A DNA stretch of 32,335 nucleotides from Promethearchaeota archaeon (GCA_048940445.1 JBHLON010000037.1:1-32335); one strand, 5' to 3'; shown: positions 7,480-17,553, counted from the first letter of the stretch. Notes: generated from the letters alone by a model not told the origin. Program-made: numbers and translations.

Positions 7480-9765
7480 ATGTTAAAAGGGGTAATTCGG
7501 ATAGGGTTGAGAAATTTCAGAAAATTATCAATTTTTACTTTATTTTTATTATTATTAAGTATTAGTCTTATTTCTCAAATTGATTTTTCTACATCTCAAT
7601 CTAATGATGAATCCTTATTAGTTCCTCTCAATTTCAAATTTGAAGAATTTTCACAAAATATTGACTCGTCAAGTGATTTAAATTCAATTGATATTCCATT
7701 ACCTCCTTATTCATGTAATTTGACAAATATGCAATTAAACTTCTCTGATATTAGATTAGGAAGGGAAATAAAGGTGGTTGAAGATGAAGTTTATGGAGAA
7801 TATTCGCAAATATATTTTAAAAATCCTTCCTTTCGGAGATATGGATTAGCTGTTCAAATTAATTTAACTGAACCCACGATTATATATGGAACATATATTT
7901 ATGGTTATAAATCGCTTAATACAAAAGAGATTATTCAAGTTCAGTTGAGAGGATTTGATGCCATATCTAAAACACCTAATACAACTATATATGTTTCTAA
8001 AGATATCAATATGTCATATATCCCGGGATGGTATTTGCAAAATTTTACTTCACCTGTGAAACTATCAAAAGGAAACTATTTTTTAACTCTCTATGGTGTT
8101 GGCATGGTTACTAACATTAATACCAGTTATTTTTGGGCTTATAATAAATATACTCCTAACTATCCAAGTCTTTATAAGTCAGAATATATTACCGGTTGGA
8201 CAAATGGTGTACAAAATTCACCATATCTATATAAGCTGATACAAAAAACAGATAAAATCTATGATCCAGAAGAAATAAATATGACCGTTGGAATTAATGG
8301 AATTGACTATAAGATTATAAATTCTACTGAATCCGGTTCTGGAGCATTATCAGTTAATGGATTAAATTGGGAAATTAACAATGAATTTCTCTCATTACCA
8401 ATAAAAAATTCTCTTAATATTGAATTAAATTTCTCTCTTTCCTATTTGATTAATGTTAGAAGCAATTTACTTGCTCATGGATCTGTTTTAATTAAGGATG
8501 GTCAAGAGAATATTTGGATAATTAATCCACAATTTGTTAGATATTATAAAAATTATTCTATCTATTTTTCATATCCTTCTAATTGGAATAATATAACTAT
8601 TTTTAGAAACAATGTTAATATTTCTTCTTTAACTTATATTGATACTACTGAAAAATTTATTCGTATAGAAAATAATACTCTTATTGAAGGAGCAGAATGG
8701 GAAATCACCGCGAATTCTCCAAGATTTGATGTTAATCTAGCTATTCATCGTACTGATTACGTTCCCGGTCAGGAAATAAGATTTTCAATTGACTCTCCAA
8801 TAAGATCTGGAAACTATACTTTTGTGTTATATGCTCCTGATCAATTAGAAATCCCTAAAGCTCGCCAAAATATTACGTTACCTTCAGATTCAAATATATT
8901 CTCCTATAATATTCCTCTTCATCCATTAGATGGGAATTATTATGCATATATTTATTTTTATGACGGTGTGGATGCGGGTGTAGGAACTATTATCTTCATC
9001 ATTACAATTCCGTTTACTATTGACCCATTGACCTTATTCTCTATAATTTTAACAGCAGCAGTAGCTTTAGGGGTTACCGTCTCTATAGTTGTGGGTGTTA
9101 AAAGACATAGACGAAAAGTTTTAGCTCGAAAAGAAGAAGTAATTAATAGATGCATGGATATATTAAATCTTAATTACATTATGGTTGCTGAAAAAAAATC
9201 ATCATTAAATGTGTATGAACAGGTTTTTACATCAAAAACGATTGATCCAACTCTTATATCTGGTTTCTTATCAGCAATTCATTCTTTTGGAATAGAATTA
9301 ACAAATACAGATGAAAAAACACAGACAATTAAGCTTGAATTCAAGAATTCAAAAGTGATAATGTCAGAATTCAAAGACTTCAGATTAGTTCTAATTATGA
9401 ACCAATTGCCCTCACAAAAGTTCCTAGATTCGATAAATCAGTTAGCTTTTGATATTGAATTATACTATGGCCAATTTCTTGAAACTTTTAAAGGAAATAT
9501 TGACCCCTTTAAAGGTATTGAAGCTTTACTTAAAAAACATTTGAATATATCCTTTTTATATCCATTGAAAGTCGTTAAAACTGGAAAAAGTAAAGTAGAA
9601 CAAAATGAAAGAGCATTAATTACTCGTGCTTTAGAAATTATGAAAAAAAACCATACAAATTATTTCTACGCTTCTAATATTATGGACACCAAAAAGTATG
9701 ATGCAAAGAATTTAGAAACTATTTTTAAGTTAATTGAGAAAAAAATATTTCAGCCCGTTATTTAG
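7480..9765 (+). CDS. Single-pass membrane protein with cytoplasmic longin-like + winged-helix-like domains (paralog 1)
   Basis: N-terminal hydrophobic signal, beta-rich ectodomain with many N-x-S/T, TM LTLFSIILTAAVALGVTVSIVVGV followed by KRHRRK, then LNYIMV..SLNVYEQ..LISGFLSAIHSFG. Confidence 0.8.
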   Translation: MLKGVIRIGLRNFRKLSIFTLFLLLLSISLISQIDFSTSQSNDESLLVPLNFKFEEFSQNIDSSSDLNSIDIPLPPYSCNLTNMQLNFSDIRLGREIKVVEDEVYGEYSQIYFKNPSFRRYGLAVQINLTEPTIIYGTYIYGYKSLNTKEIIQVQLRGFDAISKTPNTTIYVSKDINMSYIPGWYLQNFTSPVKLSKGNYFLTLYGVGMVTNINTSYFWAYNKYTPNYPSLYKSEYITGWTNGVQNSPYLYKLIQKTDKIYDPEEINMTVGINGIDYKIINSTESGSGALSVNGLNWEINNEFLSLPIKNSLNIELNFSLSYLINVRSNLLAHGSVLIKDGQENIWIINPQFVRYYKNYSIYFSYPSNWNNITIFRNNVNISSLTYIDTTEKFIRIENNTLIEGAEWEITANSPRFDVNLAIHRTDYVPGQEIRFSIDSPIRSGNYTFVLYAPDQLEIPKARQNITLPSDSNIFSYNIPLHPLDGNYYAYIYFYDGVDAGVGTIIFIITIPFTIDPLTLFSIILTAAVALGVTVSIVVGVKRHRRKVLARKEEVINRCMDILNLNYIMVAEKKSSLNVYEQVFTSKTIDPTLISGFLSAIHSFGIELTNTDEKTQTIKLEFKNSKVIMSEFKDFRLVLIMNQLPSQKFLDSINQLAFDIELYYGQFLETFKGNIDPFKGIEALLKKHLNISFLYPLKVVKTGKSKVEQNERALITRALEIMKKNHTNYFYASNIMDTKKYDAKNLETIFKLIEKKIFQPVI

Positions 9766-9836
9766 TGAACTTAATGTTGTCTCTTTTTTTTAAACTTTAA
9801 GAAAGTTATTTATTTTAATTCATCGAATTAATTATA

Positions 9837-15106: not shown

Positions 15107-15258
15107 CTCTATATTAAATAATATTACCTTTGTGATATAATTATAAAAAGATTAATCGTCGTAATAGACATTTATGATTTAATATAACAAAATTGGAGAA
15201 GATTCTACTTGAAAATTTAAATATGTAAATTAAGATTAGAAATGCAGTTAAAATTATT

Positions 15259-17553
15259 TTGAGGTATGAGGAAAATATGAAATTTAAAAAAGTTAGAGCT
15301 TTATTTGTTTTTGGGATAGTTTCAATTTTTTTGTTAAGTTTCTTATCCAATTCTAAAGTATCTTTTACTCAATCTAATGGTATCACTTTACCAAGACAAA
15401 CGCATGCTAATATGATTGAATTGGCTGACAACATTGGTACAAAAGAAAGTAATAGCTCTGTCAAATTTCCTCTACCATCATCAACTTGGAATGTTTCTCA
15501 TATTGACTTAAATTTTTCTGATATAAAACTTGAACGTGAAATAAACTCTGTTGAAGACAATACTACCGTTCTAACAGCATATACTATAGGGAAAGAACAC
15601 CGTGGGCTGGGAGTTCAATTAAATATAACTGAACCTACCAAAATTTTTGGAGTATCTCTTTATGGAACCACAACGTCTCAAGAGATTGTACAATCTACAA
15701 AAGTACAAATAACAGGCTATGATTCTGGAGGAATTACTCCAGATTCACCCAATACAACAATATATGGATCAACAGATTTAAACATGACTACTCAATTATT
15801 GGGGTGGTATCGTCAAGTGTTCACAACTCCTATTGATCTTTCAATTGGACAGTATTATCTTACTCTAAACTGTACAAGAGTTTCAGCACTGGAGACTGGG
15901 AATATTTATTGGTTTTATAATGAGAAAAGTCCAGTACATCCAGATCTTCACATATCTTTCTATGTTAGAACCATTGGAGTATGGCGTTGGACAAAAGGAG
16001 TACTAGGAACTCCTTTCCTTCACAAAATAATTCAAAGAACAGATAAATCATACTATCCTGAGAGCATTAATATGACTGCTGAAATAAACAGTGAAACTTA
16101 TAGCATTACAAATGGACTTGTCAAAGGAACAGGTAATCTTTCTATCAATGATTTAAATTATAATCCAGGATATGATGCCTTAAATATAGAAATTCGTAAT
16201 AATAACTCAGTAGAATTACTTTTTAATTTAACTTACCACATTAGTCTCAAAAATTTATTTGTTTCAAGTGGATCTGTACTGATGCAGACAAACTATGATA
16301 ATAACTGGACACTTACTCCTACCGTTTCAAGGTTATATGCAAATTATTCAGTAAAGTTTGACTATCCTTCGAATTGGTTTAATCTTAAAGTGTATCGAAA
16401 TGGTATAGATATCTCTTCCCAAATTAATATTGATACTATTAGAAACGTAGTTTTTATTCCTAATAATACTATTATAAGTGGTGCTTATTGGGAAATAATT
16501 GCTAATTCTCCAAACATAGCTTTAACCCTAAATACTCCTAAAAAGAATTTTGAGCAATCTCAAGAACTAAAATATTCAGTAATTGCTCCTAGTTTGGAAG
16601 GAAATTATACATTCCTTCTGATTGATTCATTAGGATATGAAATAGATAGAAAATTAGTACCAGTTACAGAAGCTGAAATCGTATACAATTATACTTTATC
16701 AGCAAATCCAAATCAAGGAACTTATGTTGCGTATGTATTTTGGAATACTTTAGTTGCTGCTGGAGTTAAATCGGAAAGCTTTTTGGTAAATATAGATATA
16801 ACTTTATTCATTCTTCTCATAACAGTTATTAGTGGCTCAATAGTTGGTATAAGCGCTTTTACCTCTTACAAAGTTGTTAAAAAAGTAAAAAGAGAACGAG
16901 CAGCATATCGACAAAGTATCTTTAATAAATATATGGATATTTTAAATTTGGATTATTTGATCATTATCGAAAAAAATACAGGAATTAATATTTATGAAAA
17001 AATATTTGCCAGCAAAAGTATAGATGCGTCATTAATTTCTGGATTTTTGGAAGCCATTAGAAGTTTTGGTCTCGATCTAACGGGTTCAAATCAACAATCA
17101 CAAACAGTTAAGCTTGAATACCAAGATTCTAAAATATTGATGTCTGAATTCAAGAACTTTAGAATAACGCTAATTATGAAAGAAAGTCCTTCGGAAGATT
17201 TCCTTGAATCAATAAAACAGTTATCATATGATATCGATCAAAAATACAGAAAAGACTTAGAACGATTTGATGGAGAAGTTGGAAAATTCACTGGTATATC
17301 AGACATAATTGAGCACCATCTACCCGTAAGTTTGATATATCCTCTTCAAATTAATGAAGAGTCTACAATAAGGTTAAGTTCAAATGAGAAGGAAATTATA
17401 GAAATAGCTAAATCAATTATGAAACAAAAAAGAGTAAACTACTTTTTCATATCGAATCTTATATCTCAAAAAGGTGGGTTTCAAGCAAAACAAGCAGAAG
17501 TCATCCTAAATCTTATCGAGAAAAAAGTTTTCAATACCTCAATAAAAATATAA
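15259..17553 (+). CDS. Single-pass membrane protein with cytoplasmic longin-like + winged-helix-like domains (paralog 3)
   Basis: Same motif order as paralogs 1 and 2; TM then KVVKKVKR; LISGFLEAIRSFG; NLIEKKVF. The start is probably ATG 15277. Confidence 0.8.
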   Translation: MRYEENMKFKKVRALFVFGIVSIFLLSFLSNSKVSFTQSNGITLPRQTHANMIELADNIGTKESNSSVKFPLPSSTWNVSHIDLNFSDIKLEREINSVEDNTTVLTAYTIGKEHRGLGVQLNITEPTKIFGVSLYGTTTSQEIVQSTKVQITGYDSGGITPDSPNTTIYGSTDLNMTTQLLGWYRQVFTTPIDLSIGQYYLTLNCTRVSALETGNIYWFYNEKSPVHPDLHISFYVRTIGVWRWTKGVLGTPFLHKIIQRTDKSYYPESINMTAEINSETYSITNGLVKGTGNLSINDLNYNPGYDALNIEIRNNNSVELLFNLTYHISLKNLFVSSGSVLMQTNYDNNWTLTPTVSRLYANYSVKFDYPSNWFNLKVYRNGIDISSQINIDTIRNVVFIPNNTIISGAYWEIIANSPNIALTLNTPKKNFEQSQELKYSVIAPSLEGNYTFLLIDSLGYEIDRKLVPVTEAEIVYNYTLSANPNQGTYVAYVFWNTLVAAGVKSESFLVNIDITLFILLITVISGSIVGISAFTSYKVVKKVKRERAAYRQSIFNKYMDILNLDYLIIIEKNTGINIYEKIFASKSIDASLISGFLEAIRSFGLDLTGSNQQSQTVKLEYQDSKILMSEFKNFRITLIMKESPSEDFLESIKQLSYDIDQKYRKDLERFDGEVGKFTGISDIIEHHLPVSLIYPLQINEESTIRLSSNEKEIIEIAKSIMKQKRVNYFFISNLISQKGGFQAKQAEVILNLIEKKVFNTSIKI

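Follow-up and report, generated by a model that had tools for sequence, protein, structure and literature searches.

The window analyzed here is a 32,335-nucleotide stretch of DNA from a Promethearchaeota archaeon (GCA_048940445.1, JBHLON010000037.1:1-32335; G+C, 30%). Between positions 7480 and 17553 the genome of this Loki-type Asgard archaeon carries three paralogous genes whose products appear to join a large extracellular domain, through a single transmembrane helix, to a cytoplasmic tail with a longin fold and a second, winged-helix-like domain. An earlier note, made from the sequence alone, had described three receptor-like paralogs of 761, 757, and 764 amino acids (aa) at this locus, and open reading frames (ORFs) of these lengths lie exactly where it placed them (Table 1). 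They are real genes, as a homology search returned full-length homologs in 64 clusters at E values of 0 to 1e-135. For paralog 3, the ATG at 15277 (M7, beginning MKFKK) is probably the start codon, in preference to the TTG at 15259. The three proteins align over their full length with pairwise identities of 39 to 40%, and the motifs quoted in the note, DILNL-Y, LISGFLxA(I/V)xxFG, K(L/I)E(F/Y)xxS, YPL, and LIEK, are all present and conserved in the three-way alignment.

Table 1. Features of the receptor-like gene cluster and its neighbors, in coordinates of the window (AF2, AlphaFold2; HMM, hidden Markov model)
Feature	Coordinates	Strand	Description and basis
Paralog 1	7480..9765	+	761 aa; full gene, predicted single-pass surface glycoprotein; ORF and translation
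Paralog 1, N-terminal signal-like or anchor segment	7480..7590	+	Residues 1-37; basic n-region, then hydrophobic 13-37
Paralog 1, lectin-like jelly roll	7756..8253	+	Residues ~93-258; AF2 and VIA
Paralog 1, membrane-proximal macroglobulin/Ig-like domain	8722..9021	+	Residues ~415-514; VIA
Paralog 1, transmembrane helix and basic patch (KRHRRK)	9028..9102	+	Hydropathy, flanking charges
Paralog 1, juxtamembrane helix ending at D-I-L-N-L	9112..9165	+	Tail residues 2-18; AF2 helix
Paralog 1, longin domain	9166..9561	+	Tail residues 19-150; AF2, Foldseek, VIA
Paralog 1, winged-helix-like domain	9562..9762	+	Tail residues 151-217; AF2, VIA, Atlas
Paralog 2	11526..13799	+	757 aa; architecture as paralog 1; tail HMM E 6.7e-86
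Paralog 2, transmembrane helix; tail	~13059-13148; 13155-13796	+	Hydropathy, tail HMM
Paralog 3	15259..17553	+	764 aa from TTG; architecture as paralog 1; tail HMM E 5e-92
Paralog 3, transmembrane helix; tail	~16771-16866; 16900-17550	+	Hydropathy, tail HMM
Type I sulfatase	9837-11348	+	Between paralogs 1 and 2; formylglycine motif CMPNR at residue 53
Metallo-beta-lactamase with alkyl-sulfatase dimerization domain (MBL)	13805-15106	-	Between paralogs 2 and 3
FMN reductase	6702-7277		Upstream of paralog 1
Polytopic membrane protein	17595-18200	-	201 aa, 4 hydrophobic segments; no family match
Polytopic membrane protein	5871-6605	+	244 aa, ~6 hydrophobic segments; no family match

The predicted layout of an N-terminal hydrophobic segment, a beta-rich ectodomain of ~480 aa, one transmembrane helix, a basic patch, and a tail of ~217 aa is borne out in all three proteins. 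By hydropathy, each starts with basic residues followed by a hydrophobic segment and has one transmembrane helix at residues ~505 to 541, which is followed by a patch rich in Lys and Arg. Potential N-glycosylation sites (N-x-S/T sequons) are strongly biased, with 16 to 17 per paralog before the transmembrane helix and 1 to 2 after it. The same bias is seen in all nine transmembrane members of the family in this genome (2.6 to 3.5 versus 0 to 0.9 per 100 aa). A predicted type I topology, with the tail in the cytoplasm, is thus supported by hydropathy, by the uneven distribution of sequons, and by the basic patch, which fits the positive-inside rule.

To characterize the tail, we aligned 56 sequences and modeled the 217-aa tail of paralog 1 with AF2, obtaining a pLDDT of 89.9 and a pTM of 0.84. 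DSSP assigns strands at tail residues 20-27 and 33-38, a helix at 46-58, strands at 71-77, 80-87, and 90-96, and helices at 102-124 and 131-149. Residues 20 to 149 therefore follow a beta-beta-alpha-beta-beta-beta-alpha-alpha topology, which is the longin order. A juxtamembrane helix precedes this domain, and Asp16 near its end is nearly invariant among the 56 sequences. The best Foldseek matches in the PDB are longin or roadblock structures, namely, AP sigma, zeta-COP, Fuzzy, Tca17, SEDL, and the C-terminal domains of Rag proteins, with E values of ~1e-4 and a probability of 1.0. An exhaustive search with VIA gave Z scores of 10.6 to synbindin (2zmv_A; root-mean-square deviation [rmsd], 3.5 over 122 aligned residues) and Sec22 (3egd_C), 10.2 to VAMP7 and AP2 mu, and 9.6 to a Roadblock-Longin protein from Lokiarchaeota (8yqg_B, longin domain).

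The same search bears on the choice between longin and roadblock folds. Every one of the best 30 chains (Z scores of 10.6 to 8.0) is a longin protein. Roadblock proteins come next at Z scores of 7.0 to 7.5, ~3 units below the top matches and over a shorter alignment (~101 to 104 residues). A helix ahead of the sheet recalls a roadblock-type topology, yet two C-terminal helices follow the sheet, as in longins, and a Pfam scan of the three proteins found no Roadblock/LC7 (PF03259) match. At the sequence level, the tail matches none of the Pfam longin families (Longin, Sybindin, Sedlin_N, and Clat_adaptor_s) at E ≤ 0.05 to 0.1, either in the three proteins or in the 56 aligned members. With its confident AF2 model, topology, and VIA Z scores, the longin assignment is well supported at the level of fold, and the note's suggestion of a longin-like cytoplasmic module is upheld.

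The C-terminal 67 residues of the tail, which the note had taken for a winged helix, can be called winged-helix-like on weaker evidence than that for the longin domain. The AF2 model contains a strand (152-154), three helices (164-179, 187-190, and 198-209), and a final strand (213-215), in the order b-a-(b)-a-a-b. VIA returned a single match to residues 151 to 217 (2dfi_A; Z score, 7.1), and a structure search of the Atlas pointed to the winged-helix domain of HrcA (TM score, 0.65) and to PriA. There is no wing, as the domain ends two residues past the last strand. The putative recognition helix (198-209) has a net charge of ~0 in paralog 1 and a mean of -0.2 across the 56 members, in which its conserved positions are only hydrophobic (I..LI.K..F.P). 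Taken over the whole domain, the net charge in these members lies anywhere from -6 to +11, and no basic residues are conserved. DNA binding is therefore improbable, and we rejected it on the grounds of charge and conservation. In a separate observation, a 292-aa protein with a TPR repeat at a contig edge of the same genome (G000 contig C76:5943-6821; L018:1944-2822, minus strand) is matched weakly, three times, by positions 137 to 217 of the tail HMM, its winged-helix part, and by this sequence similarity could be a soluble protein related to the domain.

The ectodomain of paralog 1 (478 aa) was modeled by AF2 as an all-beta structure with a pLDDT of 91.4. VIA relates its jelly roll to the lectin-like domain of Cwp84 (Z score, 13.5; rmsd, 3.0 over 152 aligned residues), PHR domains (10.2 to 10.4), and carbohydrate-binding modules (8.3 to 9.2). 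The membrane-proximal domain resembles macroglobulin domains of complement C5 (Z score, 11.7; rmsd, 2.2 over 95 aligned residues) and alpha-2-macroglobulin (11.4) and, less closely, FN3/PKD domains (~8.5). A further beta-sandwich region lies between the two. The best Foldseek match to the ectodomain is EphA4 (E value of 1.4e-7), but with a TM score of 0.15 to 0.16 and 8% identity, this match appears to reflect only a generic layout of a jelly roll and a string of beta-sandwiches. The note had also called the ectodomain variable. This holds across the wider family and does not hold among the three paralogs, in which the ectodomain (28 to 49% identity, domain by domain) is no more variable than the tail (42 to 48% for the longin domain and 31 to 39% for the winged-helix-like domain).

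Evidence that these proteins belong to a large family comes from the tail. With only the tail as query, exhaustive HMMER searching recovered 585 clusters at 50% identity, always with the tail at the C terminus, in proteins of 200 to 1887 aa. The note had proposed a census of Asgard genomes; of 301 sampled, 275 contain the tail at E ≤ 1e-10, among them 89 of the 90 of high quality. Named full-length homologs are all "hypothetical protein" entries from metagenome-assembled genomes of Promethearchaeota, Heimdall-, Hod-, or Hermodarchaeota, and a profile search extends the family to Odin- and Thorarchaeota. Neither tail nor ectodomain falls into a Pfam or NCBIfam family in the three proteins and 56 members, and no significant sequence match was found in the PDB with single sequences or with a profile (nothing below an E value of 0.2). 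A precomputed PF18422 match on some homologs was discarded as a mere resemblance of the transmembrane segment. Our literature search brought up no account of transmembrane glycoproteins whose cytoplasmic tail is a longin, in agreement with the note, which knew of no characterized system of this kind. The architecture is thus real, widespread in Asgard archaea, and unannotated, and by sequence the tail fits into no family described so far. We have high confidence in the overall architecture and fold, that of a surface protein with a longin and winged-helix-like tail. In the reading we favor, the three genes are old paralogs within a family that is specific to Asgard archaea and consists of type I, single-pass, N-glycosylated surface proteins.

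The source genome (3.64 Mb, 93% complete) shows how modular this family is. It holds ten genes with a full tail by HMM, and nine of these encode an N-terminal hydrophobic segment, a large sequon-rich part, and a transmembrane helix that ends 5 to 15 residues before the tail. The nine differ in their ectodomains, one being a NosD-type beta-helix and the others matching nothing. The NosD member (contig C100:36848-39553; L022:2849-5554, minus strand), with its right-handed beta-helix recognized by Pfam at an E value of 2e-38, indicates that one tail serves unrelated extracellular folds within a single genome. The tail also follows a transmembrane helix in other Asgard families, in proteins of 500 to 3031 aa, and occurs in short forms that are membrane anchored or soluble. 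These sequence comparisons show the tail to be a conserved, portable module that, by the predicted topology, is membrane proximal. Two distant members, P0195 and P0197, carry it after PCI/DDRGK-type winged-helix repeats and before a zinc ribbon, P0195 having in addition an FG-GAP/BBS-like beta-propeller, and both are probably cytoplasmic variants of the family. We asked whether a tail-like, soluble protein encoded on contig C3 forms a split surface protein and adaptor with its neighbor of 1136 aa and rejected the idea, as the neighbor has no transmembrane helix and few sequons and so is not a surface protein.

The genes that surround the receptors form a recognizable neighborhood. The cluster of FMN reductase, receptors, sulfatase, MBL enzyme, and four-segment 201-aa membrane protein is syntenic among members of the genus and in another genus from the same family of organisms, with receptor genes that vary in number and order and, in some genomes, inserted genes. 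The sulfatase and MBL enzyme look cytoplasmic, since they lack signal peptides. A functional tie between the receptors and the interleaved sulfatases was dropped for this reason and because the strict alternation is not conserved. The 201-aa and 244-aa membrane proteins flank the receptor cluster and recur beside it in relatives (36 to 73% and 61% identity, respectively). Farther along the window, a GPP34 (GOLPH3/Vps74) family protein (21484-22194, minus strand; Pfam E value, 1.9e-31) is encoded next to three genes for PEMT/ICMT-type membrane methyltransferases.

What might such proteins do? In the explanation we prefer, the ectodomain, a lectin-like jelly roll on a beta-sandwich stalk ending in the macroglobulin/Ig-like domain, would most likely bind glycans or the surfaces of partner cells, and would form part of a noncrystalline Lokiarchaeial envelope. 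The juxtamembrane helix holds the longin and winged-helix-like domains directly beneath the membrane, where the tail would act as a protein-protein docking and probably dimerizing platform, as longin and roadblock domains do elsewhere, and so connect the surface protein with a partner in the cytoplasm. Foremost among the candidates for that partner would be one of the ~73 Ras/Rab/Arf-like GTPases, or a soluble longin or roadblock protein, of the same genome. By analogy with other longins, a docking role for the tail is somewhat more probable than not; that the partner is a small GTPase is less likely than not; and the explanation as a whole stands, in our judgment, about evenly between right and wrong.

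Longin and roadblock domains are docking platforms, often dimeric and often acting on small GTPases, as in TRAPP, Mon1-Ccz1, Ragulator, and MglB, and a GTPase is therefore the obvious candidate partner. Longin domains also serve as plain protein-protein adaptors. The source genome encodes 73 to 74 Ras-like ORFs and has 14 roadblock matches and ~20 longin ORFs, and two of its other family genes lie 12 bp (contig C96) and 54 bp (contig C98) from Ras-like genes. In a different genome, the gene for a 3031-aa family member has a longin-Ras fusion gene 870 bp upstream. One longin-Ras fusion (L014) is matched by the tail HMM over its N-terminal ~185 aa, the longin part, at an E value of 1.8e-14.

Several results weigh against a GTPase partner and, more broadly, against the docking explanation. 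The window contains no GTPase, roadblock, or soluble longin gene, and none of the Ras-like or roadblock ORFs of the genome lies on its contig. Longin-Ras fusions are common in Asgard archaea, and any longin HMM would match them. When 17 independent loci were scored for a GTPase gene within 1 kb, with a background drawn from long ORFs, 3 of them had one, compared to 5.8% in the background, a marginal difference (P of ~0.07). Of 8 loci orthologous to that of the C96 gene, 2 retain the adjacency, and the arrangement at C98 was found beside none of four relatives of the C98 GTPase. With ~73 GTPase genes per genome, chance GTPase neighbors are common, and we rejected the adjacency as operon evidence because it is marginal and not conserved. 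The conserved residues among the 56 tails are mostly hydrophobic or structural and so do not single out any catalytic or interface signature. As to the note's proposal that these proteins signal via small GTPases, a window devoid of GTPase genes and an adjacency elsewhere that is near chance and not conserved leave the link plausible but unproven, and a GTPase remains the leading candidate.

Some details of these loci deserve description in their own right. On contig C98 (positions 1 to 5725; L016), the family member is 1268 aa long and is followed 54 bp downstream, on the same strand, by the gene for a 417-aa protein with a Pfam Ras domain at residues 14 to 174 and a C-terminal half that matches many proteins of related genomes. 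A roadblock fragment comes next, at the contig edge (C98:3-131), and the arrangement looks operon-like. The longin-Ras fusions of L014 (8177-9235, minus strand) and L006 (295-1371, plus strand) are 352 and 358 aa long, the latter encoded two genes upstream of the 3031-aa family member.

A more specific possibility, in line with the note, is that the proteins are signaling receptors. A ligand bound by the ectodomain would alter the longin platform (its dimer state, for instance), and the platform would in turn recruit one particular small GTPase or act on it as guanine nucleotide exchange factor (GEF) or GTPase-activating protein (GAP). The result would be a transmembrane switch that needs no kinase, comparable to Ragulator, TRAPP, and Mon1-Ccz1 or to the conservons of bacteria. 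The longin fold of the tail, its sequence similarity to the longin moiety of longin-Ras fusions, and the two immediate GTPase neighbors in the source genome are in its favor, as is the precedent of conservons, with their sensor, roadblock protein, helix-turn-helix (HTH)-type GEF, and GTPase. No kinase or cyclase domain was found by Pfam in the three proteins and 56 members, and the note was right on this point. However, the marginal and unconserved neighborhood enrichment, the window free of GTPase genes, and the want of an identifiable catalytic motif speak against a signaling receptor, as do the absences of HATPase and HisKA domains from the three proteins and 56 members and of DUF742 (PF05331) from the three proteins and, at E ≤ 0.1, from the whole genome. 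We consider this reading doubtful.

Alternatively, the family could be purely structural, making up the main glycocalyx or acting as adhesins, with a tail that only oligomerizes or anchors the protein, in patches or to the cytoskeleton, and transmits no signal. Its near-universal, multicopy presence in Asgard genomes, its heavy sequon load, an ectodomain resembling S-layer, Ig, and lectin-like structures, and the lack of any signaling gene as a conserved neighbor would all fit such a role. This is further supported by the report that Lokiarchaea have no ordered S-layer and many "complex surface proteins" (Rodrigues-Oliveira et al., PMC9834061). A well-conserved, two-domain tail of 217 aa nevertheless exceeds the needs of anchoring, and its retention behind unrelated ectodomains throughout the phylum, together with the short forms, argues for a function of its own, making a purely structural role unlikely. 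Least of all do we favor a membrane-tethered transcription regulator of the ToxR/CadC type, binding DNA at the membrane or after proteolytic release; suggested by the winged-helix-like C terminus and by Atlas neighbors that include clusters with TrmB or HTH_47 domains, it is made very improbable by the charge of the domain and its putative recognition helix, the missing wing, and the absence of any DNA-binding Pfam match in the three proteins and 56 members.

Asgard archaea, in whose cells no organelles have been observed, are rich in genes for GTPases, longins, and roadblock proteins. Surface glycoproteins with longin tails, present across the phylum, offer a concrete and testable place to look for the roles of these genes. 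Under the docking explanation, the family could physically link the cell surface, where contacts with syntrophic partners are made, with proto-trafficking or GTPase machinery. Should ligand or cell contact in fact rearrange the longin/winged-helix platform so that it recruits a small GTPase or regulates it as GEF or GAP, which we think unlikely, these kinase-free receptors would be a prokaryotic forerunner of eukaryotic membrane-GTPase coupling, following the logic of Ragulator, TRAPP, and Mon1-Ccz1, and would give Asgard cells a route to sense partner cells. If anchoring is all that the tail does, these proteins are still good candidates for the complex surface proteins observed on the cells of Lokiarchaea. 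Experiments are feasible in cultured relatives, "Candidatus Lokiarchaeum ossiferum" and "Candidatus Prometheoarchaeum syntrophicum".

Comparison to known systems places the tail among longins and the whole protein apart from them. The tail shares its fold with synbindin/TRAPPC4, sedlin/TRAPPC2, Sec22b, VAMP7, the N termini of AP sigma and mu, the SRX domain of SR-alpha, and the Lokiarchaeota protein 8yqg, at Z scores of 9.6 to 10.6 and an rmsd of ~3 to 4 Å over ~120 residues. Known longins dock small GTPases, coats, or SNARE regulators. Unlike in these, the longin domain of the present family comes right after a transmembrane helix, at the C-terminal, cytoplasmic end of a large glycosylated ectodomain, and a winged-helix-like domain follows. 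The longin SNAREs (Sec22, VAMP7, and Ykt6) run from longin to SNARE motif to C-terminal anchor, whereas the order here is reversed, and neither a SNARE motif nor a long coiled-coil helix follows the longin domain in the three paralogs or the AF2 tail model.

Ragulator-Rag and GATOR1 (NPRL2/NPRL3) are membrane-anchored roadblock or longin platforms for Rag GTPases, and NPRL2-type proteins, like the tail, combine a longin with small C-terminal domains. The GATOR1 chain 8fw5_B aligns over tail residues 19 to 216 in VIA, poorly so (Z score, 7.1; rmsd, 12.2). Ragulator, however, is lipid anchored rather than a transmembrane glycoprotein, and no Rag-type partner is linked to the family. Within Asgard archaea, 130 roadblock/longin asCOGs with extensive domain shuffling have been described (Liu et al., bioRxiv 10.1101/2020.10.19.343400), and cytoplasmic ESCRT-linked proteins combine Vps28-C, adaptin ear, longin, and HTH/PCI domains (Makarova et al., 2024, PMC10936438). 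The latter share with our family an Asgard-specific shuffling of longins with winged-helix/PCI and Ig-like domains. They differ in that a transmembrane and ectodomain layout is not described in PMC10936438, and Pfam finds no Vps28-C domain or adaptin ear in the three proteins and 56 members.

The nearest prokaryotic functional analogue is the actinobacterial conservon (CvnA-D; MfpB-E), which unites a membrane sensor kinase, a roadblock protein, a DUF742 HTH protein, and a Ras-like GTPase (PMC11343762, PMC13343842), the DUF742 protein being a GEF (PMC11343762). Lacking a kinase sensor, DUF742, and a Ras-like GTPase in the same operon, the receptors described here were rejected as members of this system, and the likeness is one of analogy. 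The domain logic of ectodomain and transmembrane helix, longin, and winged helix is nonetheless similar, with the difference that conservons distribute their parts, headed by a histidine-kinase-like sensor, over four separate operon-encoded proteins, whereas the Asgard family has its own parts fused in a single chain.

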